A stretch of 64,000 bases of DNA from NCBI RefSeq assembly GCF_017348835.2, contig NZ_CP071375.1. The stretch is one strand, 5' to 3'. The translations under genes were made by a program, and so were the position numbers. Shown here piece by piece: positions 10,662 to 53,275 of the stretch. This stretch comes from Escherichia coli. Its GTDB lineage: Bacteria > Pseudomonadota > Gammaproteobacteria > Enterobacterales > Enterobacteriaceae. Positions within the stretch are counted from its first letter, which is position 1, and the number at the start of each line of letters is the position of its first letter. A model generated the notes under the pieces. The model was not told the origin of the DNA. It did not search any database and saw only the letters and a program-made list of their open reading frames with translations.

Positions 10662-12698
10662 ATGGATACGCCACGCCCACAATTACCAGATTTTCAGTTT
10701 CATCAGAATAACGACAGTTTTACCCTACATTTTCAACAGCGTCTTATTTTAACCCATAGCAAAGATAATCCTTGTTTATGGATTGGTTCAGGTATTGCGG
10801 ATATCGATATGTTCCGCGGCAATTTCAGCATTAAAGATAAACTACAGGAGAAAATTGCGCTTACCGACGCCATCGTCAGCCAGTCACCGGATGGTTGGTT
10901 AATCCATTTCAGCCGTGGTTCTGACATTAGCGCCACGCTGAATATCTCTGCCGACGATCAGGGCCGTTTATTGCTGGAACTACAAAACGACAACCTTAAC
11001 CACAACCGTATCTGGCTGCGCCTTGCCGCTCAACCAGAGGACCATATCTACGGCTGCGGCGAACAGTTTTCCTACTTCGATCTGCGTGGCAAACCGTTCC
11101 CGCTATGGACCAGTGAACAAGGCGTTGGTCGCAACAAACAAACCTATGTCACCTGGCAGGCCGACTGCAAAGAAAATGCGGGCGGCGACTATTACTGGAC
11201 TTTCTTCCCGCAGCCTACGTTTGTCAGCACGCAGAAGTATTACTGCCATGTTGATAACAGTTGCTATATGAACTTCGACTTTAGTGCCCCGGAATACCAT
11301 GAACTGGCGCTGTGGGAAGACAAAGCAACGCTGCGTTTTGAATGTGCTGATACATACATCTCCCTGCTGGAAAAATTAACCGCGCTGCTGGGACGCCAGC
11401 CAGAACTGCCCGACTGGATTTATGACGGAGTAACGCTCGGCATTCAGGGCGGCACTGAGGTGTGCCAGAAGAAACTGGATACCATGCGTAACGCGGGCGT
11501 GAAGGTCAACGGCATCTGGGCGCAGGACTGGTCCGGGATCCGTATGACCTCTTTTGGCAAACGCGTAATGTGGAACTGGAAGTGGAACAGCGAAAACTAC
11601 CCGCAACTGGATTCGCGTATCAAGCAGTGGAACAAAGAGGGCGTGCAGTTCCTTGCCTATATCAACCCGTATGTTGCCAGTGATAAAGATCTCTGCGAAG
11701 AGGCGGCAAAGCGCGGTTATCTGGCAAAAGATGTCGCCGGTGGCGACTATCTGGTGGAGTTTGGCGAGTTCTACGGCGGCGTTGTCGATCTCACCAATCC
11801 GGAAGCCTACGCCTGGTTCAAGGAAGTTATCAAAAAGAACATGATTGAACTCGGCTGCGGCGGCTGGATGGCTGACTTCGGCGAGTATCTGCCCACCGAC
11901 ACGTACCTGCATAACGGCATCAGCGCGGAAATTATGCATAACGCCTGGCCCGCGCTGTGGGCGAAATGTAACTACGAAGCCCTTGAAGAAACGGGCAAGC
12001 TCGGCGAGATCCTCTTCTTTATGCGCGCCGGTTCTACCGGTAGCCAGAAATACTCCACCATGATGTGGGCGGGAGACCAGAACGTCGACTGGAGTCTGGA
12101 CGATGGCCTTGCGTCCGTTGTCCCGGCGGCGCTGTCGCTGGCAATGACCGGACATGGTCTGCATCACAGCGACATTGGCGGTTATACCACCCTGTTTGAG
12201 ATGAAGCGCAGCAAAGAGCTGCTGTTGCGCTGGTGCGATTTCAGCGCCTTCACGCCGATGATGCGCACCCACGAAGGTAACCGTCCGGGCGACAACTGGC
12301 AGTTTGACGGCGACGCGGAAACTATCGCCCATTTCGCCCGTATGACCACCGTCTTCACCACCCTGAAACCTTACCTGAAAGAGGCCGTCGCGCTGAATGC
12401 GAAGTCCGGCCTGCCGGTTATGCGCCCGCTGTTCCTGCATTACGAAGACGACGCGCAGACCTATTCCCTGAAATATCAGTACCTGTTAGGTCGCGACATT
12501 CTGGTTGCTCCGGTACACGAAGAAGGTCGCAGCGACTGGACGCTCTATCTGCCAGAGGATAACTGGGTCCACGCCTGGACCGGAGAAACCTTCCACGGTG
12601 GAGAAATAACTGTTGAAGCGCCCATCGGCAAGCCGCCGGTCTTTTATCGCGCCGACAGCGAATGGGCTGCACTGTTCGCCTCGTTAAAAAGCATCTAA
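10662..12698 (+). CDS. yihQ: GH31 family sulfoquinovosidase
   Basis: 678-aa ORF, glycoside hydrolase family 31 features; recognised YihQ. Confidence 0.88.
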   Translation: MDTPRPQLPDFQFHQNNDSFTLHFQQRLILTHSKDNPCLWIGSGIADIDMFRGNFSIKDKLQEKIALTDAIVSQSPDGWLIHFSRGSDISATLNISADDQGRLLLELQNDNLNHNRIWLRLAAQPEDHIYGCGEQFSYFDLRGKPFPLWTSEQGVGRNKQTYVTWQADCKENAGGDYYWTFFPQPTFVSTQKYYCHVDNSCYMNFDFSAPEYHELALWEDKATLRFECADTYISLLEKLTALLGRQPELPDWIYDGVTLGIQGGTEVCQKKLDTMRNAGVKVNGIWAQDWSGIRMTSFGKRVMWNWKWNSENYPQLDSRIKQWNKEGVQFLAYINPYVASDKDLCEEAAKRGYLAKDVAGGDYLVEFGEFYGGVVDLTNPEAYAWFKEVIKKNMIELGCGGWMADFGEYLPTDTYLHNGISAEIMHNAWPALWAKCNYEALEETGKLGEILFFMRAGSTGSQKYSTMMWAGDQNVDWSLDDGLASVVPAALSLAMTGHGLHHSDIGGYTTLFEMKRSKELLLRWCDFSAFTPMMRTHEGNRPGDNWQFDGDAETIAHFARMTTVFTTLKPYLKEAVALNAKSGLPVMRPLFLHYEDDAQTYSLKYQYLLGRDILVAPVHEEGRSDWTLYLPEDNWVHAWTGETFHGGEITVEAPIGKPPVFYRADSEWAALFASLKSI

Positions 12699-12743
12699 TC
12701 ATGTCCGCCCGTGGGGAAACTCACGGGCACAGGGAGAACAAAG

Positions 12744-14129
12744 ATGAGTCACATCACAACGGAAGATCCAGCAACTTTACGCTTGCCCTTTAAAGAGAAA
12801 CTCTCTTACGGTATTGGCGACCTGGCCTCTAACATTTTGCTGGATATCGGCACGCTTTATCTTTTGAAATTTTATACCGACGTTCTGGGGCTGCCTGGCA
12901 CCTATGGCGGCATTATCTTTTTGATCTCGAAATTCTTTACTGCGTTTACGGATATGGGTACCGGCATCATGCTGGATTCCCGACGCAAGATCGGTCCAAA
13001 AGGTAAGTTCCGTCCTTTTATTCTGTATGCGTCATTCCCGGTCACCTTACTGGCAATCGCCAACTTTATCGGCACGCCGTTTGACGTCACCGGTAAAACG
13101 GTGATGGCCACCATCCTGTTTATGCTCTACGGACTGTTTTTCAGCATGATGAACTGCCCCTATGGCGCAATGGTTCCCGCCATTACCAAAAACCCCAACG
13201 AACGCGCATCGCTGGCGGCATGGCGTCAGGGTGGTGCTACATTGGGCCTGCTGCTGTGTACAGTGGGATTCGTGCCGGTGATGAACCTTATCGAAGGTAA
13301 TCCGCAACTGAGCTACGTTTTCGCCGCCACGCTATTTTCACTGTTCGGCCTGCTGTTTATGTGGATCTGCTACTCGGGCGTGAAAGAGCGTTATGTCGAA
13401 ACCCAACCTGCTAATCAGGCGCAAAAGCCAGGCTTGCTGCAATCTTTCCGCGCAATTGCCGGTAACCGCCCACTGTTCATTCTGTGTATTGCCAACCTCT
13501 GCACCTTAGGGGCGTTTAACGTCAAGCTCGCCATTCAGGTCTATTACACCCAGTACGTGCTTAACGATCCCATCCTGTTGTCGTATATGGGATTTTTTAG
13601 CATGGGCTGTATTTTCATCGGCGTGTTCCTGATGCCTGGCGCAGTTAGACGTTTTGGTAAGAAGAAGGTCTATATCGGCGGCCTGCTGATTTGGGTGTTG
13701 GGCGATCTGCTCAACTATTTCTTCGGCGGCGGTTCGGTCAGCTTCGTGGCGTTCTCCTGCCTGGCATTCTTCGGCTCAGCGTTTGTTAACAGCCTGAACT
13801 GGGCGCTGGTTTCCGACACCGTCGAGTACGGCGAGTGGCGTACCGGCGTTCGTTCGGAAGGTACGGTCTACACCGGTTTCACCTTCTTTCGCAAAGTGTC
13901 TCAGGCGCTGGCTGGTTTCTTCCCCGGCTGGATGCTGACGCAAATCGGTTATGTGCCGAACGTGGCGCAGGCTGACCACACCATTGAAGGGTTGCGCCAG
14001 CTGATCTTCATCTACCCAAGCGCACTGGCGGTAGTCACCATTGTGGCGATGGGCTGCTTCTACAGCCTGAACGAGAAGATGTATGTCCGCATTGTTGAAG
14101 AAATAGAAGCCCGTAAACGCACGGCGTAA
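12744..14129 (+). CDS. yihP: GPH-family (sugar:cation symporter) transporter YihP
   Basis: ORF 12711-14129; start placed at MSHITTED after SD agggaga; 12-TM GPH-type sequence. Confidence 0.82.
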   Translation: MSHITTEDPATLRLPFKEKLSYGIGDLASNILLDIGTLYLLKFYTDVLGLPGTYGGIIFLISKFFTAFTDMGTGIMLDSRRKIGPKGKFRPFILYASFPVTLLAIANFIGTPFDVTGKTVMATILFMLYGLFFSMMNCPYGAMVPAITKNPNERASLAAWRQGGATLGLLLCTVGFVPVMNLIEGNPQLSYVFAATLFSLFGLLFMWICYSGVKERYVETQPANQAQKPGLLQSFRAIAGNRPLFILCIANLCTLGAFNVKLAIQVYYTQYVLNDPILLSYMGFFSMGCIFIGVFLMPGAVRRFGKKKVYIGGLLIWVLGDLLNYFFGGGSVSFVAFSCLAFFGSAFVNSLNWALVSDTVEYGEWRTGVRSEGTVYTGFTFFRKVSQALAGFFPGWMLTQIGYVPNVAQADHTIEGLRQLIFIYPSALAVVTIVAMGCFYSLNEKMYVRIVEEIEARKRTA

Positions 14130-14171
14130 TAATAATAAACAACGCCCTGCGGGGCGTTATAAGGAGTGATT

Positions 14172-14694
14172 ATGTCTGACCATAATCCACTGACATTAAA
14201 ACTGAATCTGCGGGAAAAAATCGCCTATGGTATGGGCGACGTCGGTTCGAATTTAATGCTTAGCATCGGTACTCTGTATCTCCTCAAATTTTATACCGAT
14301 GAATTAGGGATGCCAGCTTACTATGGCGGGATTATCTTTCTGGTGGCGAAGTTTTTTACCGCGTTTACCGATATGCTCACCGGATTTTTACTCGACTCGC
14401 GGAAAAATATTGGGCCTAAAGGCAAATTTCGTCCCTTTATTTTATATGCAGCGGTTCCGGCGGCGTTAATTGCAACGCTCCAGTTTATCGCCACCACCTT
14501 TAGTTTGCCGGTTAAAACGACGATTGCCACCGCGCTGTTTATGATGTTTGGACTTTCATACAGTCTGATGAACTGCTCGTATGGTGCGATGATCCCGGCA
14601 ATTACCAAAAACCCGAATGAGCGCGCGCAGCTCGCGGCTTACCGCCAGGGTGGTGCAACCATAGGGCTATTGATTTGTACCGTGGCGTTTATTC
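14172..14694 (+). pseudogene. yihO: yihO (GPH-family sulfoquinovose transporter) 5' fragment, truncated after about 174 codons by IS629
   Basis: SD aaggag then ATG 14172; paralogous to yihP over the N-terminus; reading frame runs into the IS629 left inverted repeat at 14695 and terminates inside the IS. Confidence 0.8.
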
Positions 14695-14748
14695 TGAACC
14701 GCCCCGGAAATCCTGGAGACTAAACTCCCTGAGAAAGAGGTAAACAGG

Positions 14749-15075
14749 ATGACTAAAAATACTCGTTTTTCCCCCGAAGTCCGTCAGCGGGCGATTCGTA
14801 TGGTTCTGGAAAGTCAGGATGAATATGACTCACAGTGGGCGGCAATTTGTTCCATTGCCCCAAAGATTGGCTGTACGCCGGAGACTCTGCGTGTCTGGGT
14901 TCGCCAGCATGAGCGGGATACCGGGAGTGGTGATGGTGGACTCACCACCGCTGAACGTCAGCGTCTGAAAGAGCTGGAACGTGAAAATCGTGAACTGCGC
15001 CGCAGTAACGATATCCTTCGCCAGGCTTCCGCTTATTTTGCGAAGGCGGAGTTCGACCGCCTCTGGAAAAAATAA
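14749..15075 (+). CDS. IS629 transposase OrfA (HTH/leucine-zipper component)
   Basis: 108-aa [26 protein letters not shown]... recognised as IS629/IS1203-type OrfA; A6 run 15067-15072 is the likely programmed -1 frameshift site. Confidence 0.85.
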
Positions 15076-15962
15076 TGCCACTGCTGGATAAGCTGCGTGA
15101 GCAGTACGGGGGCGGACCGGTATGCAGCGAACTGCATATTGCCCCGTCAACGTATTACCATTGTCAGCAACAGCGACATCATCCGGATAAACGCAGTGCC
15201 CGTGCGCAGCACGATGACTGGCTGAAGAAAGAGATACAGCGCGTATACGATGAAAATCACCAGGTATACGGTGTGCGTAAAGTCTGGCGTCAGTTGTTAC
15301 GGGAAGGTATCAGAGTGGCCAGATGCACTGTGGCACGTCTCATGGCAGTTATGGGACTTGCCGGTGTTCTCCGGGGTAAAAAGGTCCGCACTACCGTCAG
15401 CCGGAAAGCCGTTGCCGCATGCGACCGCGTAAACCGTCAGTTCGTGGCAGAACGTCCAGACCAGTTGTGGGTGGCTGATTTTACCTGGGTAAGCACATGG
15501 CAGGGCTTCGTTTATGTGGCGTTCATCATTGATGTGTTCGCCGGATACATCGTGGGATGGCAGGTCTCATCATCCATGGAAACAACATTCGTGCTGGATG
15601 CACTGGAGCAGGCGTTGTGGGCCCGTCGGCCGTCCGGCACAATCCATCACAGTGATAAAGGTTCTCAGTATGTATCGCTGGCCTACACGCAGCGGCTTAA
15701 GGAAGCCGGATTACTGGCATCAACAGGGAGTACTGGCGACTCGTATGACAACGCGATGGCTGAGAGCATCAATGGTCTTTACAAAGCGGAGGTAATACAC
15801 CGTAAGAGCTGGAAAAACCGGACAGAAGTGGAACTGGCCACACTAACGTGGGTGGACTGGTATAACAATCGACGATTGCTGGAAAGGCTGGGCCATATTC
15901 CTCCGGCAGAAGCAGAAAAAGCTTATTATGCTTCCATCGGAAATAATGATCTGGCAGCCTGA
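15075..15962 (+). CDS. IS629 transposase OrfB (DDE catalytic domain)
   Basis: 295-aa ORF in -1 frame relative to OrfA; ATG overlaps OrfA stop (TAATG). Confidence 0.85.
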   Translation: MPLLDKLREQYGGGPVCSELHIAPSTYYHCQQQRHHPDKRSARAQHDDWLKKEIQRVYDENHQVYGVRKVWRQLLREGIRVARCTVARLMAVMGLAGVLRGKKVRTTVSRKAVAACDRVNRQFVAERPDQLWVADFTWVSTWQGFVYVAFIIDVFAGYIVGWQVSSSMETTFVLDALEQALWARRPSGTIHHSDKGSQYVSLAYTQRLKEAGLLASTGSTGDSYDNAMAESINGLYKAEVIHRKSWKNRTEVELATLTWVDWYNNRRLLERLGHIPPAEAEKAYYASIGNNDLAA

Positions 15963-16004
15963 GTTCACAGATAAAACACTCTCCAGGAAACCCGGGGCGG
16001 TTCA

Positions 16005-16223
16005 ATGGGCAGAATTTTACTCGATTTATCCGATGAGGTGATTAAGCGACTTGATGATCTCGAGGTGCAGCGTAATCTTCCTCGTGCGGACCTATTAAGG
16101 GAAGCGGTAGATCAATACCTGATAAATCAATCGCAAACAGCAAGAACCAGTGTTCCTGGCATCTGGCAAGGGTGTGAGGAAGATGGTGTCGAATATCAGC
16201 GTAAGCTGCGCGAGGAATGGTAA
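16005..16223 (+). CDS. yiiE: small ribbon-helix-helix (CopG-like) protein YiiE
   Basis: 72-aa [24 protein letters not shown]...; ATG immediately follows the last base of IS629. Confidence 0.65.
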
Positions 16224-16272
16224 TGGGAAAAAATGATGTCAATCAGATTGCTGACAACGTGCGCGTTGTTCA

Positions 16273-16372
16273 TGCCGGATGCGGCGTGAACGCCTTATCC
16301 GGCCTACAAAGTCGTATAAATTCAATGTATTGCAGTTTATTGGTAGGCCTGATAAGCACAGCGCATCAGGCA
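16273..16372. repeat. REP/BIME palindromic units (pair)
   Basis: gccggatgcggcgtgaacgccttatccggcctaca and ggtaggcctgataagcacagcgcatcaggca read directly. Confidence 0.75.
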
Positions 16373-16535
16373 ATCTTACGCTTGTCATCAGTCTCATGCC
16401 CATAACCTTATTGATGTGGTGGTGGGTAAATTGGCGGCATAGCTTGAGGTGGTAACGCGGAATACGAGAGATGGTGTCGTCACACCCTATGAGCTGTAAT
16501 CCGGGCGACCAGCGCCACCCGGAAAACGTCAGAGA

Positions 16536-17465
16536 TTACTCCCCTTCACCCGGAAACAGGAACGGGTTGATGGAACTGCGGGCATAGCCTTCTTGCTCCA
16601 TTCGTGCGTCCAGTACCAGAGAGGCGAGGTCATCTGCTACGGCTTCGATTTTTGGATCTTTTTCCTGATAGAGAATTTTCAGGTAAGTGCCGCAGTCATC
16701 GCAGCTTTCGGCTTTAATCGCGGCCTGTTCGTCATCCAGCGACCAGTAATGCAGTTTGCCGCTCTGCTCGCAGTTGCTGCATTTTACGCGCACTACGTGC
16801 CATTCGGTTTCACACAGGTTGCAGTGCAGGTAACGCAGACCCTGAGTGGTGCCAATTTGCACCATGCTGGACACCGGCATAGAGCCACATACCGGGCAAT
16901 ATTGACGTTGTTCGCCGTATTCAGCGCGGGCTTTGCCGGGGATCAGATTGGCCATCTGCGCCCAGTAGAGCGACAGCGCAGCCCAGATAAACGGCGCTTT
17001 ATCGCTGCTGACGGACGAGAAATCAGAGGCAAACAGCGCGCTGGCCATATCTTCCAGCTCCTGAGTCGATGCCTTCTCCAGATTCTCAATCACTGCCAGC
17101 GCCGGGCCGCTCATTTCAGGTTTCAGCTCAGCAATTAGCGCCATCAGCAGCTTTTGCCAGTGCTTATCACGCGGCAGAACGTGAATATCCAGCGGGGGCT
17201 TGCCCTGTGCGCTGGCTTCTTTAATGCGCGCGGTCAGATCCATCTCCAGCGGATGGTCGTACAGCACCACTTCCTGGGCGTGGGCGATAAGCGCAGCAAA
17301 GCGCAGGTAATCACCCAGCGGATTATTTTCTGCCAGCTCGCGCAGACGCTCGGCGCGGCGGTTGTATAAATTCTTGAGCCGAGGGAACAATAACGGCGGA
17401 ATCATATCCGCCGTACGTTTCTCGCTCGAACCCAGCTCATCTTGCGGGATTATGCGAATACTCAT
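16536..17465 (-). CDS. fdhE: formate dehydrogenase accessory protein FdhE
   Basis: 309-aa ORF with multiple CxxC pairs; recognised FdhE. Confidence 0.92.
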
Positions 17466-18097
17466 TCAGCTTTCTTTTCCGTTGTCTTGCGGACCTCACG
17501 GTACCAGCGCGGGTGATGTTTCTTCGCCCAGGCGCTGGTAACCCATCCTTCCACCATGGCGGTAATCGTGCCTTTCACCCAAAGGGCGGCGTAGATATGC
17601 ACCATGATAACCACAATTAACGCCACTGCGGCAAATGAATGCAGCATTAACGCGAATCGGATCACCGGGATTGAGAAAGCAGGCGCAAAATAAGGACGCC
17701 AGATAATCACGCCGCTCACCAGCAGCAGAACCAGGAAAATAATCGCCGCCCAGAAAACGCATTTCTGACCGAAGTTATAACGCCCGGTGTCACCTACTTC
17801 CTCGTTGACGACGATCTTACGAATATTCTTCGCCCAAAAGATATCATCCCGATTGATTAGGTTGTGATGCCAGTAACGGAAAAACATGATGATGAACGAG
17901 GCAAACATAACCACGCCGACAAACGGGTGCAGAATTCGCGCCAGCTGCGGTGTGCCCATGATTTGCATCAACCAGTTGAAGGACGGGAACAAAAAGCCCA
18001 GCCCGCTCACCGCCGCCAGGATGAAGCAGAAGGCGGTGATCCAGTGGTTGATACGTTCCGGCGCGGTGTAGCGCACGATGGTGTCACGTCGTTTCAT
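17462..18097 (-). CDS. fdoI: formate dehydrogenase-O cytochrome b556 subunit
   Basis: 211-aa 4-TM ORF; overlaps fdhE and fdoH by 4 bp. Confidence 0.92.
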
Positions 18098-18996
18098 TTG
18101 CGCTCCTCGTCTTTCTCTTCGTGCAGATTATTCTCTTCCTCATCCGCACGGTTCGGACCGACACCCACGTAGTGGAAGATACTGGCTGCGAAGGTAGCCG
18201 CAAAGCCAACAGCTGCGAGCGGTTTCCAGATGCCTTTCCAGAATTTCACGGTTTCGCTGATTTCCGGGTTCTCCGGCAAGCCATGATACAGATTTGGCTT
18301 GTCAGCATGGTGCAGCACGTACATAACGTGTGTACCACCGACGCCTGCCGGATCGTACAGACCCGCATTGTCGTAACCGCGGGTTTTCAGCTCAGCAACG
18401 CGCTCGCTCGCCAGCGTTTTCATCGACTCTTTCGTACCGAAGTGAATCGCGCCCGTTGGGCAGGTCTTCACGCAGGCTGGTTCTTGCCCAACCACCACGC
18501 GGTCAACGCACAGCGTACATTTGTAGACGCGGTTGTCTTCCGGGTTGAGGCGCGGAATGTCGAACGGACAGCCCGCAATGCAATAACCGCAGCCAATGCA
18601 CTGCTCGGACTGGAAGTCGACGATACCGTTGGCATACTGAATAATTGCACCTTCCGCCGGGCACGCTTTCAGGCAGCCTGGATCGGAACAGTGCATACAG
18701 CCGTCTTTGCGGATCAGCCATTCCAGTTTGTCGTTCTGCTCCACTTCTGAGAAGCGCATCACCGTCCACGATTTGGCGCTTAAATCATTGGGGTTGTCGT
18801 ACACCCCAATGTTATTGCCGACGGTATCGCGAATGTCGTTCCACTCTGAACACGCCACCTGACAGGCTTTACAGCCGATACAGGTGGTGACGTCGATGAG
18901 TTTCGCCACTTCTTCCTGGAAGTCCCGCGCCTGAGGCGCGGGGGTCAGACCGTTAGTCGCGGAACGACGAATGATATCTTGCGATTGATAAGCCAT
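18094..18996 (-). CDS. fdoH: formate dehydrogenase-O iron-sulfur subunit
   Basis: 300-aa ORF with four ferredoxin-type CxxCxxCxxxCP clusters. Confidence 0.92.
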
Positions 18997-19008
18997 ATGT
19001 CGTCTCCG

Positions 19009-22000
19009 TTACACCTTTTCCACATTCACAAGGAAGGACTTAAACTCCGGCGTCTGCGTGTTCGCATCACCAACGAATGGCGTTAACGTATTGGCAATAA
19101 AGCCTTTTTTAGCTACGCCTTCATAGCCCCAGTGAATCGGAATACCGATGGTATCGATATCTTTGCCGTTCGCTTTCAGCGTGCGAATACGTTTGGTCAC
19201 CACCGCTTTGGCTTTGATATAGCCACGGTTGGAGGAGACTTTCACGGTATCGCCCTGGGCAATGCCAAGTTTATTCGCCAGCGACTCACCGATTTCCACA
19301 AACTGCTCTGGCTGCAAAATCGCGTTCAACAGCGCGTGTTTGGTCCAGTAGTGGAAGTGCTCGGTCAGACGATAGGTGGTTCCGACATACGGGAACTTAT
19401 CGGCTTTACCCAATGCTTCGGCGTCGTCTTTAAAGATTCGCGCAGCCGGGTTCGAGATAACGTTTGGATGCAGCGGGTTAGTTCCCAGCGGCGTTTCAAA
19501 CGGCTCGTAGTGTTCCGGGAACGGACCTTCCGCCATCTTATCGAGGGCAAACAGACGTCCCATGCCTTCCTGCTGCATGATAAACGGCCCGACGCCGCTG
19601 CCCGGAGGCGCTGCGCTGTAGTCCGGAATATCCCAGCCGGTCCACTTAGTGCCGTCCCATTTCAGCAACTGACGCTTCGGATCCCACGGGTTACCCTGCG
19701 GATCTGCGGAGGCGCGGTTATACAGAATGCGGCGGTTAAGCGGCCATGCCCATGCCCAGCCCAGTGTGTTACCGAGGCCAGACGGATCGGCGTTATCACG
19801 GCGTGCCATCTGGTTGCCTTCCGGCGTCCAGCTACCGGCGAAAATCCAGCAGCCACAGGAGGTTGTACCATCATCGCGCAGTTGGGCGAACGAGCTAAGT
19901 TGTTGGCCTTTCTTGACGATAACCGCACCGGTTGCCGGATCGGTAATATCGGCCAGCGCCTTACCGTTGCTCTCCATCGCTACTTCTTCCGACTTCGGCT
20001 CATGCGGAATGGCGTAGTTCCATGTCATGTTCAGCACCTGGTCCGGGTTCGCGCCACCCTGTTCGGCATACATCTTGCGCAAGCGCAGGAAGATACCGGA
20101 GAGGATCTCGCCGTCAGTCAGCGCAATCCCCGGGGCGTCCGCACCTTTCCAGTGCCACTGTAACCAGCGACCTGAGTTAACGATTGAACCGTTCTCTTCT
20201 GCGAAGCAGGTCGATGGCAGACGGAACACTTCGGTCTGGATCTTCGACGAGTCAACTTCGTTCAGCTCACCGTGGTTCTGCCAGAAGTTAGAGGTTTCAG
20301 TGTTCAGCGGGTCGATGGTGACGAGGAACTTCAGTTTCGACAGACAACCGATCACTTTGTTTTTGTTCGGGAATGAGGCAACAGGGTTAAAGCCCTGGCA
20401 GATATAGCCATTGACCTTGCCCTCTTTCATCATCTCGAAGTATTGCAGGACGTCGTAGCCTTTATCCCACTTCGGCAACCAGTCAAAGCCCCAGCTATTT
20501 TCCGCCGTCGCTTTATCACCAAAGAAGGCCTTCATCATGGAGACGAAGAATTTCGGGTAGTTGCCCCAGTAGTTTACCTGGCCTTCCAGCAGCGGTTTTG
20601 GCGTGTTGGCGGTAAGGTAGGTTTGCAGATCGGTCTGCTTCTCGCTTGGCAGCGTCATGTAACCCGGCAGGCTCTGCGACAGCAGCCCCAGGTCCGTCAG
20701 CCCCTGAATATTGGAGTGACCGCGCAGGGCGTTAACGCCGCCGCCTGCCATCCCCATATTGCCGAGCAGCAGCTGGATCATCGCCATCGTACGAATGTTC
20801 TGCGCACCAACGGAGTGTTGCGTCCAGCCGAGGGCATACAGGAACGAGGCAGTTTTATCGTGAGCACTGGTTTCTGCGATGTATTCGCTGACTTTCAGGA
20901 ACGCGTCTTTTGGCGTACCACAGATGTTTTCAACCACATCTGGCGTGTAGCGGGAAACGTGCTGTTTCAGCAAGTTCCACACGCAGCGCGGATGTTGCAG
21001 CGTGGTATCGCGTTTGGCGAAGCCGTTTTCGTCCAGTTCGTAAGTCCAGGAGGATTTATCGTACTTGCGTTTTTCCGCGTCATAGCCGGTGAACAGGCCA
21101 TCTTCAAAGCCGTAATCCTCACGCACGATCAGGCTGGCGTTGGTATAGGCTTCGGTGTATTCGCGGTTGAATTTTTCATTGTTCAGCAGGTACAGCAATA
21201 CGCCTGACAGGAAAGCAATGTCAGTACCGGAACGAATAGGGGCATAGTAGTCAGCCACCGCCGCCGTACGCGTAAAGCGAGGATCGATCACAATCAGCTT
21301 CGCGCCATTGTGAATTTTGGCTTCCATCGCCCAGCGGAACCCGACCGGGTGAGCTTCAGCGGCGTTACCGCCCATCACCACGACGAGGTTGGCGTTCTTG
21401 ATGTCGACCCAGTGGTTGGTCATCGCACCGCGACCAAATGTTGGAGCAAGACTTGCTACCGTTGGTCCGTGTCAGACACGCGCCTGGTTGTCGACCGCGA
21501 GCATACCCAGCGCGCGGGAGAATTTTTGCGTTAAATAGCCGGTTTCGTTACTCGACGCGGAAGCACACAGCATCCCGGTGGAGAGCCAGCGGTTAACAGT
21601 CACGCCTTCGGCGTTTTGCGCAATGTAGTTAGCATCGCGGTCTTCTTTCATCAGTTTGGCGATGCGATCAAACGCCTCTTCCCAACTGATTTGCTGCCAT
21701 TTATCAGAACCTGGCGCACGGTATTCCGGAAACTTCAGACGGCTTTCGGAGTGGATGAAATCCACCAGGCCAGCGCCTTTCGGACAAAGTGCACCGCGGT
21801 TGACCGGGTGATCCGGATCGCCTTCGATATGGAAGATAGATGCTTTGGCGTTTTTTGCTCCGTCACCGAGGCTGTACATCAACAGCCCACAGCCTACGGA
21901 ACAATAGGTGCAGGTATTACGGGTTTCGCGGGTGCGCAGCAGTTTATACTGCCGGGTTTCCGCGAGTGCTACGCTGGGTGCAAAACCCAGTGCCGCTGCC

Positions 22001-22059
22001 GTGGTGCCTGCCATACCGCCAGCGCAGATCTTAAAGAACTGCCTTCTGCTGACCTGCAT
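19009..22059 (-). CDS. fdoG: formate dehydrogenase-O catalytic subunit (selenocysteine-containing, molybdopterin)
   Basis: Two same-frame ORFs (21472-22059 and 19009-21423) separated only by an in-frame TGA at 21472-21474 = Sec codon; N-terminal Tat signal RRQFFK. Confidence 0.92.
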
Positions 22060-22252
22060 GGATTGCTCCTTGTTTCGACATTGTCACGTCCCATTTACAT
22101 TCGCTTGCTGCGTGTGCAGGGAGTGGGAGTTATTTTTCTTTGCGGAAGGGGCCGCAAAGGTCCAGAATTGGCTCAATTTCCCTCCATCCAGGAAGGGTTT
22201 GTAACAGAATACCATAATGTTGGTGTGTGTGTTCTTATCTGGTTAAGAGAAA

Positions 22253-23086
22253 GTGAAAAAAACACAGCAAAAAGAAATCGAAAATGTGACAAATATCACA
22301 GGTGTTCGTCAAATTGAGTTATGGCGGCGTGATGATTTACAACACCCACGGTTAGATGAGGTCGCGGAAGAAGTTCCCGTTGCGCTGGTCTACAACGGCA
22401 TTTCGCATGTGGTGATGATGGCGTCGCCCAAAGACCTTGAGTACTTTGCGCTCGGTTTTTCGCTTTCCGAGGGGATAATAGAAAGTCCGCGCGATATCTT
22501 CGGCATGGATGTCGTTCCTTCCTGTAATGGTCTTGAAGTACAAATTGAGCTTTCCAGCCGCCGCTTTATGGGGTTGAAGGAGCGCCGCCGGGCGCTGGCG
22601 GGACGTACGGGCTGTGGCGTATGCGGCGTGGAGCAACTTAATGACATCGGAAAACCGGTGCAGCCGCTACCGTTCACCCAGACGTTTGATCTCAACAAAC
22701 TGGATGATGCATTACGTCATCTCAACGATTTTCAGCCAGTGGGGCAACTGACTGGTTGTACTCACGCCGCTGCATGGATGTTGCCATCTGGCGAACTGGT
22801 CGGCGGGCATGAAGACGTGGGTCGCCATGTGGCGCTGGACAAACTGTTAGGCCGCCGGTCACAAGAAGGGGAAAGCTGGCAGCAAGGTGCGGTACTGGTT
22901 TCCAGTCGTGCCAGTTATGAAATGGTGCAAAAGTCGGCGATGTGCGGCGTAGAGATTTTGTTTGCGGTGTCTGCCGCGACCACGCTTGCTGTAGAAGTGG
23001 CTGAGCGCTGTAATTTGACACTGGTAGGTTTTTGTAAGCCGGGTCGGGCAACGGTTTATACCCATCCGCAGCGTTTGAGCAATTAA
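22253..23086 (+). CDS. fdhD: formate dehydrogenase sulfurtransferase/accessory protein FdhD
   Basis: 277-aa ORF, recognised FdhD; divergent from fdoG. Confidence 0.92.
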
Positions 23087-29537: not shown

Positions 29538-30932
29538 ATGAAAAAATCGACATTATCTTTAGCCATCGGTTTATTATTGGCATGTAGTACCGGTATGGCA
29601 AAAACACAGCATTTAACGCTGGAACAACGCATGGCATTGCTGGAAGAACGCCTGGAAGCGGCAGAAATGCGGGCGGCAAAAGCAGAGAGCCAGGTTAAAC
29701 AGCTGCAGACACAACAAGCCGCTGAGATCCGCGAAATTAAGGCCGCTCAGGGCAATACGCCGGTAAATGGACAGGCAACGGCGGAATCTGCAAAGAAAAA
29801 TGCCACCTCACCTAATCTTTTGCTTTCAGGTTATGGCGATTTAAAAATCTACGGCGACGTAGAATTTAATATGGATGCGGAAAGTAATCATGGCCTGCTG
29901 GCAATGACCAACGCTGATGTGAATAGCGATCCCACTAATGAGCAGTGGAATCTCAATGGTCGTATTCTGTTAGGTTTTGATGGTATGCGAAAACTGGATA
30001 ATGGCTATTTCGCCGGGTTCTCCGCACAACCGCTGGGGGATATGCACGGTTCAGTAAATATCGATGATGCGGTATTCTTCTTTGGCAAAGAAAACGACTG
30101 GAAGGTCAAAGTAGGCCGTTTTGAAGCCTACGATATGTTCCCGTTGAATCAGGATACCTTTGTTGAACATTCCGGTAATACTGCGAACGATCTTTATGAC
30201 GATGGCAGCGGTTATATCTATATGATGAAAGAGGGCCGCGGGCGTTCTAACGCTGGCGGTAATTTCCTCGTCAGCAAACAACTCGATAACTGGTATTTTG
30301 AATTAAACACGTTACTTGAAGACGGAACATCTTTATATAATGACGGTAATTATCATGGACGTGATATGGAGCAGCAGAAAAATGTTGCTTATCTGCGCCC
30401 AGTAATTGCCTGGTCGCCGACGGAAGAATTCACCGTTTCCGCAGCGATGGAAACGAACGTGGTAAATAATGCTTATGGTTATACCGATAGCAAGGGTAAT
30501 TTTGTCGATCAGTCCGATCGTACCGGCTATGGTATGAGCATGACCTAGAATGGCTTGAAAACGGATCCGGACAATGGCATTGTGGTTAATCTTAATACCG
30601 CCTATTTAGATGCTAATAATGAGAAAGATTTCACTGCCGGGATTAACGCGCTGTGGAAACGTTTCGAGCTCGGTTATATCTACGCGCACAATAAGATTGA
30701 TGAATTCAGCGGTGTAGTTTGTGATAACGACTGCTGGATTGATGATGAAGGGACGTACACCATTCACACCATTCATGCGTCTTATCAGTTCGCTAATGTG
30801 ATGGATATGGAGAACTTTAATATTTACCTCGGGACGTATTACTCCATTCTGGATAGCGACGGCGATAAAAAACACGGTGATGATACTGATGACCGTTACG
30901 GCGCACGCGTTCGCTTTAAATACTTCTTCTGA
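29538..30932 (+). pseudogene. outer-membrane glycoporin-like gene (signal peptide, N-terminal coiled coil, beta-barrel, C-terminal Phe) interrupted by one in-frame amber codon; possibly RafY-family
   Basis: ORFs 29538-30548 and 30555-30932 are in the same frame, separated only by TAG at 30546-30548; total 464 codons; signal peptide MKKSTLSLAIGLLLACSTGMA; terminal ...RFKYFF. Confidence 0.7.
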
Positions 30933-32162: not shown

Positions 32163-32199
32163 CCGTAGGCCGGATAAGGCGCTCGTGCCGCATCCGGCA
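32163..32199. repeat. REP palindromic unit between rhaA and rhaD
   Basis: gtaggccggataaggcgctcgtgccgcatccggca. Confidence 0.7.
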
Positions 32200-40986: not shown

Positions 40987-41072
40987 TGTAGGCCTGATAA
41001 GACGCTATCAGCGTCGCATCAGGCATCCTGCTCAAATGCCGGATGCGGCGTAAACGCCTTATCCTGCCTACA
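40987..41072. repeat. REP/BIME palindromic units between yiiM and cpxA
   Basis: gtaggcctgataagacgc...gcgtcgcatcaggca and gccggatgcggcgtaaacgccttatcctgcctaca. Confidence 0.75.
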
Positions 41073-41082
41073 AATGCGGAGT

Positions 41083-45995: not shown

Positions 45996-46050
45996 TGATT
46001 TCGGAAAAAGGCAGATTCCTTTAGCCTGAAACCGATGACAGAAGCAAAAA

Positions 46051-46150
46051 TGCCTGATGCGCTTCGCTTATCAGGCCTACGTGAATTCTGCAATTTATTG
46101 AATTTACAAACTTTTGTAGGCCGGATAAGGCGTTCGCGCCGCATCCGGCA
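46051..46150. repeat. REP/BIME palindromic units between pfkA and sbp
   Basis: gcctgatgcgcttcgcttatcaggcctac and gtaggccggataaggcgttcgcgccgcatccggca. Confidence 0.75.
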
Positions 46151-46313
46151 TCGATAAAGCGCACTTTGTCAGCAATATGAGGCGGATTTCTTCCGCCTTT
46201 TTAACCCCCAACATATACCCGCAAGTTATAGCCAATCTTTTTTTATTCTTTAATGTTTGGTTAACCTTCTGGCACGCTTTGCTCATCACAACACAACATA
46301 AGAGAGTCGGGCG

Positions 46314-53059: not shown

Positions 53060-53164
53060 AGCAAACTCTAAGCAGTAAGGAATGGCGCGAAGTGTAGCAC
53101 AGGGGAAGGGTGGGATTATTGATGTGTGCGGGGTTGCCCCCGCACGGTTTCAGAGTCTGCGTGA

Positions 53165-53275
53165 TGCCGGATGCGGCGTGAACGCCTTATCCCGCCTACA
53201 CAAAATGGCATTGGCTCGTAGGCCTGATAAGACGCGTAAGCGTCGCATCAGGCGATCAGCATCAGGCAATCGATT
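53165..53275. repeat. REP/BIME palindromic units between glpX and glpK
   Basis: gccggatgcggcgtgaacgccttatcccgcctaca, gtaggcctgataagacgcgtaagcgtcgcatcaggc and a further partial unit. Confidence 0.75.

Follow-up and report, generated by a model that had tools for sequence, protein, structure and literature searches.

An IS629-group element splits yihO at one endpoint of a 17.3-kb inversion in Escherichia coli and most likely disables sulfoquinovose import

In the Escherichia coli DNA analysed here (the window, a stretch of 64,000 nucleotides on contig NZ_CP071375.1 of assembly GCF_017348835.2), a complete insertion sequence (IS) of the IS629 group joins codon 174 of the transporter gene yihO to the start of yiiF. 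An earlier note on this DNA had described a simple insertion that truncates yihO; the junction is instead one end of a 17.3-kb inversion between two inverted copies of the element. Both IS copies were located. Their flanks are reciprocal, the two target sites could be rebuilt exactly, and the segment is colinear, in inverted orientation, with that of the near-isogenic pig strain F2_81; by that colinearity, the endpoints of the inversion are the two IS insertion sites. We consider it likely that two IS629-group insertions were followed by recombination between the copies, giving a 17,328-bp inversion in a strain most likely left without sulfoquinovose import; from this arrangement we infer in what order the events occurred, how recombination proceeded and which phenotype would result. 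The main value of the analysis lies in the correction from an insertion that truncates yihO to the endpoint of an IS-mediated inversion that splits it, displaying that a gene seemingly truncated within a window can be one inversion end.

The element at 14695-16004 on the + strand (copy A) measures 1310 bp, starting with TGAACCGCCCCGG and ending with CCGGGGCGGTTCA, and its features and surroundings are collected in Table 1. The sequence and the ORF list confirm the coordinates given by the earlier reader, and the description of an IS3-family element with inverted repeats and both transposase ORFs in a -1 overlap is borne out by the sequence as well as by matches to NCBIfam NF033516 and Rfam RF01497. 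The terminal inverted repeats extend over 25 nt and are 88% complementary. Between them, an A6 run at 15067-15072 immediately precedes the TAA stop of orfA and is the putative site of the -1 slip from orfA into orfB. The RF01497 match is full-length, with 116.1 bits (gathering score 50) and an E value of 7e-31, and it spans the A6 run, the orfA stop and the orfA/orfB overlap. The orfB frame matches NF033516 ('IS3 family transposase') at 307.9 bits, with both orfA and orfB covered by this assignment. The OrfAB fusion of 404 aa carries HTH_Tnp_1, HTH_21 and rve domains by domain match, and its length is that of the PGAP programmed-frameshift product.

Table 1. Features of the IS element, its two flanks and the inverted segment within the window
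Feature	Position	Strand	Basis or remark
Window part of the inverted segment	1..14694	- strand: fabY, dtd, yihY, yihX, csqR, yihV; + strand: yihU, T, S, R, TauE-like, yihQ, yihP, yihO'	K-12 and F2_81 colinearity, PE164 annotation
yihO 5' fragment, codons 1-174 plus 1 nt	14172..14694	+	GPH symporter family TIGR00792; PGAP pseudogene 'missing C-terminus'
TTC, one target-site duplication copy of the yihO insertion	14692..14694	+	Partner now adjacent to the second IS copy
Left terminal inverted repeat, TGAACCGCCCCGGAAATCCTGGAGA	14695..14719	+	Same sequence as in the O157 copy
orfA, 108 aa, HTH_Tnp_1	14749..15075	+	ORF list, domain search
ALIL pseudoknot, -1 frameshift stimulator of the IS3411/IS629 group	15030..15146	+	Rfam RF01497
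orfB frame, -1 relative to orfA, 296 codons, HTH_21 and rve DDE integrase core	15072..15962	+	
Right terminal inverted repeat	15980..16004	+	1 nt different from the O157 copy
ATG, one target-site duplication copy of the yiiE/yiiF insertion	16005..16007	+	K-12-type yiiF start codon
yiiF, 72 aa, CopG/ribbon-helix-helix	16005..16223	+	97.2% aa identity to K-12 YiiF; PGAP annotation

Several features place the element in the IS629 group, namely a length of about 1310 bp, imperfect repeats of about 25 bp beginning with TGAAC, OrfAB in the 0/-1 frames, and the ALIL pseudoknot. Additionally, the target duplications found (TTC and ATG) fall within the 3-4 bp reported for IS629 (PMC3271280). The copy of O157:H7, labelled 'IS3-like element IS1203 family' by PGAP, shares 95.8% ungapped nucleotide identity with it (55 differences in 1310) and 96.5% amino acid identity; measured against a nucleotide identity of at least about 95% with a named isoform of IS629, this is borderline, and the reference is the O157 'IS1203 family' copy rather than the type sequence from S. 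sonnei. Shigella flexneri plasmid copies are 95.3-95.7% identical, and those in O103:H2, O121, and other strains and plasmids are 99.8-99.9% identical. Three IS629 subtypes, 55-60 nt apart, were distinguished by Rump et al. (PMC3271280), and IS1203 and IS3411 are counted as IS629 isoforms (PMC3271280). A Shigella-type IS629 assignment was considered and dropped, since the element differs by about 4-5% from Shigella plasmid and IS1203-type copies alike. Judged by these identities, the element is classed as an IS629-group isoform of the IS3 family; the name IS629, as first given to it, holds in the broad sense and not for the type sequence, with the O157 IS1203-type and Shigella plasmid copies at the identities stated above.

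On the left side of copy A, the yihO fragment matches residues 1-174 of the 467 of K-12 YihO at 98.9% amino acid identity, ending at 14693/14694, which agrees with the cut after codon 174 that had been proposed. Its TIGR00792 match covers the N-terminal 157 of 437 profile positions only, and the reading frame continues for nine IS-encoded codons to a stop at 14723. The gene on the right side, yiiF, lies about 14 kb from yihO and on the opposite strand in K-12, where the order is ompL(-) yihO(-) yihP(-) ... yihU(-) yihV(+) csqR(+) yihX yihY dtd fabY yiiE(+) yiiF(+) fdhE(-). In the window, yihQ, yihP and yihO' share a strand with yiiF, and the genes from fabY to yihV run the other way; relative to the K-12 order, the whole block is inverted. 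A BLAST comparison with K-12 gave the same picture, with L002 5245-19754 (NC_000913.3 4,065,244-4,079,753) aligned in inverted orientation and both flanks direct, and the segment from the window start to 14694 is oriented opposite to both K-12 and F2_81. GC skew, considered as an inversion signal, was negative over the first 8 kb (-0.06) and slightly positive on average downstream, and is noisy at this scale.

Within the window, where the 5' third of yihO alone is followed by the IS, the arrangement resembles a simple IS insertion, perhaps with a deletion alongside, that cost the gene its 3' two-thirds. This explanation is extremely improbable: the right flank is yiiF, every gene between yihO and yiiF is present but inverted, and the yihO 3' fragment is intact beside a second IS copy, with nothing missing at either breakpoint. 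The presence of all genes between the breakpoints ruled out the deletion model.

Neither a second IS copy nor the remaining 3' portion of yihO turned up in a search of the window; both were found outside it, in the record of E. coli PE164 (NZ_CP114128.1; pig, Nanjing; O108:H9), from which the window departs at 4 of 36,700 aligned bp (15112, 15845, 30547 and 35014, the first two being inside the IS). In the PE164 locus (L001), copy A occupies 20996-22305 (+) and copy B 2358-3667 (-), the two being in opposite orientation and 1 nt apart in sequence. Copy B precedes the window start by 2.6 kb and separates yiiE from an 884-nt yihO 3' fragment that is followed by ompL. Two checks proposed in the earlier note, for the 3' two-thirds of yihO and for further IS629 copies, were thus both positive, and the locus that it had called recombinogenic has evidently recombined already.

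The flanks of the two copies are reciprocal. Copy A is flanked as ...GTTTATTC|IS|ATGGGCAGA... (in short form, ...TTATTC|IS|ATGGGC...), and copy B, read in the IS orientation, as ...GGATATG|IS|TTCCGTTGC... (in short form, ...GATATG|IS|TTCCGT...), so that the target duplications read TTC|IS|ATG at copy A and ATG|IS|TTC at copy B. K-12 and F2_81 have a single TTC and a single ATG at these sites, and PE164 has two of each, now divided between the two IS copies. When the yihO 5' and 3' fragments are joined minus one TTC, an open frame of 1404 nt and 467 codons is restored, which differs from K-12 by 15 nt and 3 aa and is identical to it over 50 nt at the junction. The yiiE and yiiF flanks, joined minus one ATG, are colinear with K-12 at 96.5% over 1101 nt. 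Because both reconstructions are exact, both sites carry a 3-bp target duplication and no other loss. The RefSeq annotation presents the PE164 event piecemeal, as two pseudogene fragments and two IS3 transposases, and the searched passages of the PE164 paper (PMC12233904) contain no occurrence of 'insertion sequence' and no mention of the rearrangement.

The near-isogenic strain F2_81 (pig, Australia) carries both empty sites at 100% identity, in the K-12 order, with an intact yihO and no IS at either site. PE164 positions 3668-20995 (17,328 bp) align with F2_81 at 99.988% identity and inverted relative to both flanks, with the alignments overlapping by 3 bp at each breakpoint. Combined, the comparisons reveal an oppositely oriented IS at each breakpoint, reciprocal duplications without gain or loss, and a related genome that is un-inverted, as an inversion between the copies would leave. 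F2_81 and PE164 also have in common the same protein accessions, a small island between fabY and yiiE, a TauE-like gene and a yihN pseudogene. The latter lies at L001 1-624 in PE164, outside the window, and has an internal stop, as does the F2_81 gene; the inactivation of yihN is therefore older than the IS events.

The island between fabY and yiiE, about 2 kb long and AT-rich, takes up window positions 1-726 (continuing to L001 4508-6549), is absent from K-12, and holds a 304-aa ORF (PGAP 'transposase') and a partial hypothetical ORF. A 291-aa gene of TauE/SafE type, resembling sulfite exporters, is found at 9679-10554 (+) between yihR and yihQ, as in F2_81; K-12 has a 198-bp gap and no TauE-like gene at this place, and the earlier reader's gene list did not include it. 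Further downstream, between frvA and rhaM, a 464-aa 'carbohydrate porin' gene is encoded at 29538-30932 (+), which we take to be absent from the K-12 gene order; in the window it has a premature TAG at 30546-30548 (TGG in RefSeq PE164) that leaves ORFs of 336 and 125 aa. A search of the island ORFs, the TauE-like protein and the porin against NCBIfam gave no matches.

Within a survey set of 5,426 complete E. coli genomes, the uninterrupted yihO site was seen in 3,878 and the uninterrupted yiiE-yiiF site in 4,147, and each of the two window junctions was seen in one genome, PE164 alone. Because of this distribution, the PE164 state is taken to be derived and recent. The same set, searched via the two junctions, contained no genome in an intermediate state, with either or both insertions but without the inversion. 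Since no intermediate appears there, the two-step order of insertion and then inversion is put forward as a reconstruction.

The missing two-copy, un-inverted intermediate would be accounted for by a one-step intramolecular replicative transposition, in which a single IS resident at either of the two sites (within yihO or at yiiF) targeted the other one and thereby duplicated itself and inverted the DNA between; such an event yields precisely the observed pattern of xyz|IS|abc and abc|IS|xyz. However, a single-insertion intermediate is likewise missing among the 5,426 genomes, and the absence favours neither model. IS3-family elements, including IS629, transpose by a copy-out-paste-in route via a circular intermediate. 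This route (see also bioRxiv 10.1101/2023.06.07.543989) gives simple insertions and not replicative inversions, leaving the one-step event improbable; if true, it would be mechanistically unusual for a copy-out-paste-in IS.

In the likely sequence of two insertions and a recombination, an ancestor whose genes were ordered as in K-12, and for which F2_81 stands, would have gained two IS629-group copies. One would have inserted inside yihO after nucleotide 523, duplicating TTC, and the other at the yiiF start codon, duplicating ATG, with each copy directed like its target gene; because yihO and yiiF are on opposite strands, the two copies would then have been mutually inverted. Homologous recombination of the RecA type between the 1310-bp copies would have flipped 17,328 bp, comprising yihO', yihP through yihU, yihV, csqR, yihX, yihY, dtd, fabY, the small island and yiiE. 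The outcome would be the arrangement that is seen, with yihP - yihO(1-174) - IS - yiiF - fdhE in the window and ompL - yihO(175-467) - IS - yiiE just outside it. About 31 places in the PE164 genome match the IS left end, and this burst of IS629-type copies supplies substrates for recombination.

Identical inverted repeats are also a classic cause of assembly ambiguity, and the orientation of a segment between them needs long reads across the 1.3-kb repeats. Two simple insertions with the 17-kb segment placed in the wrong orientation by the assembly, or a mixed population in which the segment flips, would fit the flank sequences equally, and the methods passages searched in the PE164 paper name just Illumina NovaSeq and Unicycler (PMC12233904). 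Two of the 4 mismatches between the window and the RefSeq record are inside the IS, which suggests repeat-related polishing uncertainty. The 4 differences also suggest that the window comes from a sister isolate or from an assembly version with other polishing, and is not the RefSeq sequence itself. Nevertheless, short reads alone cannot close a 5.03-Mb chromosome that contains about 31 IS629-like copies, and long reads or an equivalent, which span 1.3 kb easily, were presumably used. The same junction is moreover present in the window and in the PE164 record despite the 4 differing positions. A mis-oriented assembly or a mixed population is an unlikely explanation. A truly reversible flip-flop, in which switching of the 17-kb segment would couple ompL and yiiF, or the yih genes, to varying upstream DNA and IS read-through, was weighed jointly with a one-step IS3-family inversion, and the two together are given little credence.

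One of the differences inside the IS touches the frameshift region. At window position 15112, the window has G where both PE164 IS copies have T, which alters OrfB/OrfAB from ...QYGVGP... to ...QYGGGP.... The position belongs to the internal-loop segment 15112-15117 of the ALIL pseudoknot (UCGGAC in PE164), which is able to pair with the apical loop GUUCGA at 15051-15056, and the change would cost one of the six loop-loop pairs. This difference may be a polishing artefact.

At the right end of copy A, yiiF abuts the IS directly, and its native upstream region is now 17 kb distant, beside the other IS copy. PGAP places the start of yiiF in F2_81 eight codons further upstream, which, if correct, would put the IS within yiiF. 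A promoter/terminator consensus scan at the IS-yiiF junction gave no outward promoter-like site, the sites being not above those of shuffled sequence, and YiiF had no NCBIfam match. Downstream of yiiF, palindromic repeats of REP/BIME type (GCCGGATGCGGCG...) are present at 16243-16399, with other intergenic sites at 41036-41074, 46024-46180, 53163-53203 and 32165-32199; these repeats inflate BLAST match counts for queries that include 16243-16399.

With regard to the metabolism of sulfoquinovose, a plant sugar, yihO is interrupted at the same nucleotide whether the locus arose by inversion, by a one-step event, by mis-assembly or by flipping, and a GPH/MFS transporter of 12 helices that breaks off after residue 174 is expected to be non-functional. 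The remaining genes of the pathway, as the earlier note had also found, look intact: yihP, yihQ, yihR, yihS, yihT, yihU, yihV and csqR are full length, with 95-100% amino acid identity to K-12. When the long yih cassette was considered as a set (ompL, yihO, P, Q, R, S, T, U, V, csqR), yihO, split at codon 174/175, was the sole member that was not intact. The note had expected the loss of one of two GPH transporters and not of the pathway, YihP being the other (64% identity to YihO). This conflicts with data for K-12, in which YihO is the sulfoquinovose importer and a ΔyihO mutant does not grow on sulfoquinovose, according to PMC6278857, citing Denger et al. 2014. That mutant fails on sulfoquinovose with YihP in place; in this strain, use of the pathway for sulfoquinovose from outside the cell is therefore probably lost in practical terms, with all of its enzymes intact. 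Import most likely does not occur, because yihO is disrupted in either orientation.

In K-12, ompL, yihO and yihP are induced together by sulfoquinovose (PMC12608037). Here, ompL follows the IS and a gene fragment and is removed from the yihP side, and neither ompL nor yiiF is still joined to its native upstream DNA. A survey that scores the yih cassette by gene presence would misclassify such a strain, a predicted sulfoquinovose non-user with intact enzymes.

IS629 insertions, IS-bounded inversions and structural lability of the yih region are all well known, and the present case is a new, strain-specific instance of them. The element shares with IS629, IS1203 and IS3411 of E. coli and Shigella its length, the left repeat of the O157 copy, the sizes of orfA (108 aa) and orfB (296 codons) in the 0/-1 frames, the ALIL pseudoknot and a 3-bp target duplication; it differs by the 55 nt that separate it from the O157 IS1203-type copy, and its PGAP label is just 'IS3 family transposase'. 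For a porcine aEPEC/ExPEC hybrid (O108:H9), the case connects IS629-type expansion with gene inactivation plus chromosome rearrangement, with a small broader significance.

Among E. coli inversions between inverted repeats, the 1.15-Mb inversion between prophage repeats in O157:H7 (PMC7430833) is similar in having repeats exactly at both breakpoints, no gain or loss of sequence, and a comparator strain with the other orientation. In contrast, the segment described here is 17.3 kb long, lies within one replichore, is not symmetric about the terminus and is known from assembled sequence, and its repeats are IS copies that had already disrupted a gene by inserting. The yih (sulfo-EMP) cassette is evolutionarily labile and occurs in E. 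coli in a long version (ompL-yihOPQRSTUVW) and in a short, reversed version (yihTUVW), with orientation changes ascribed to inversion and recombination (PMC12608037). The present arrangement concerns the same locus and likewise involves a change of orientation, but it corresponds to neither described form: the long cassette is retained with its full gene set, the inversion takes in yihX through yiiE as well, and yihO is split by an IS, which adds an IS-driven route to the known variation of the yih cassette.
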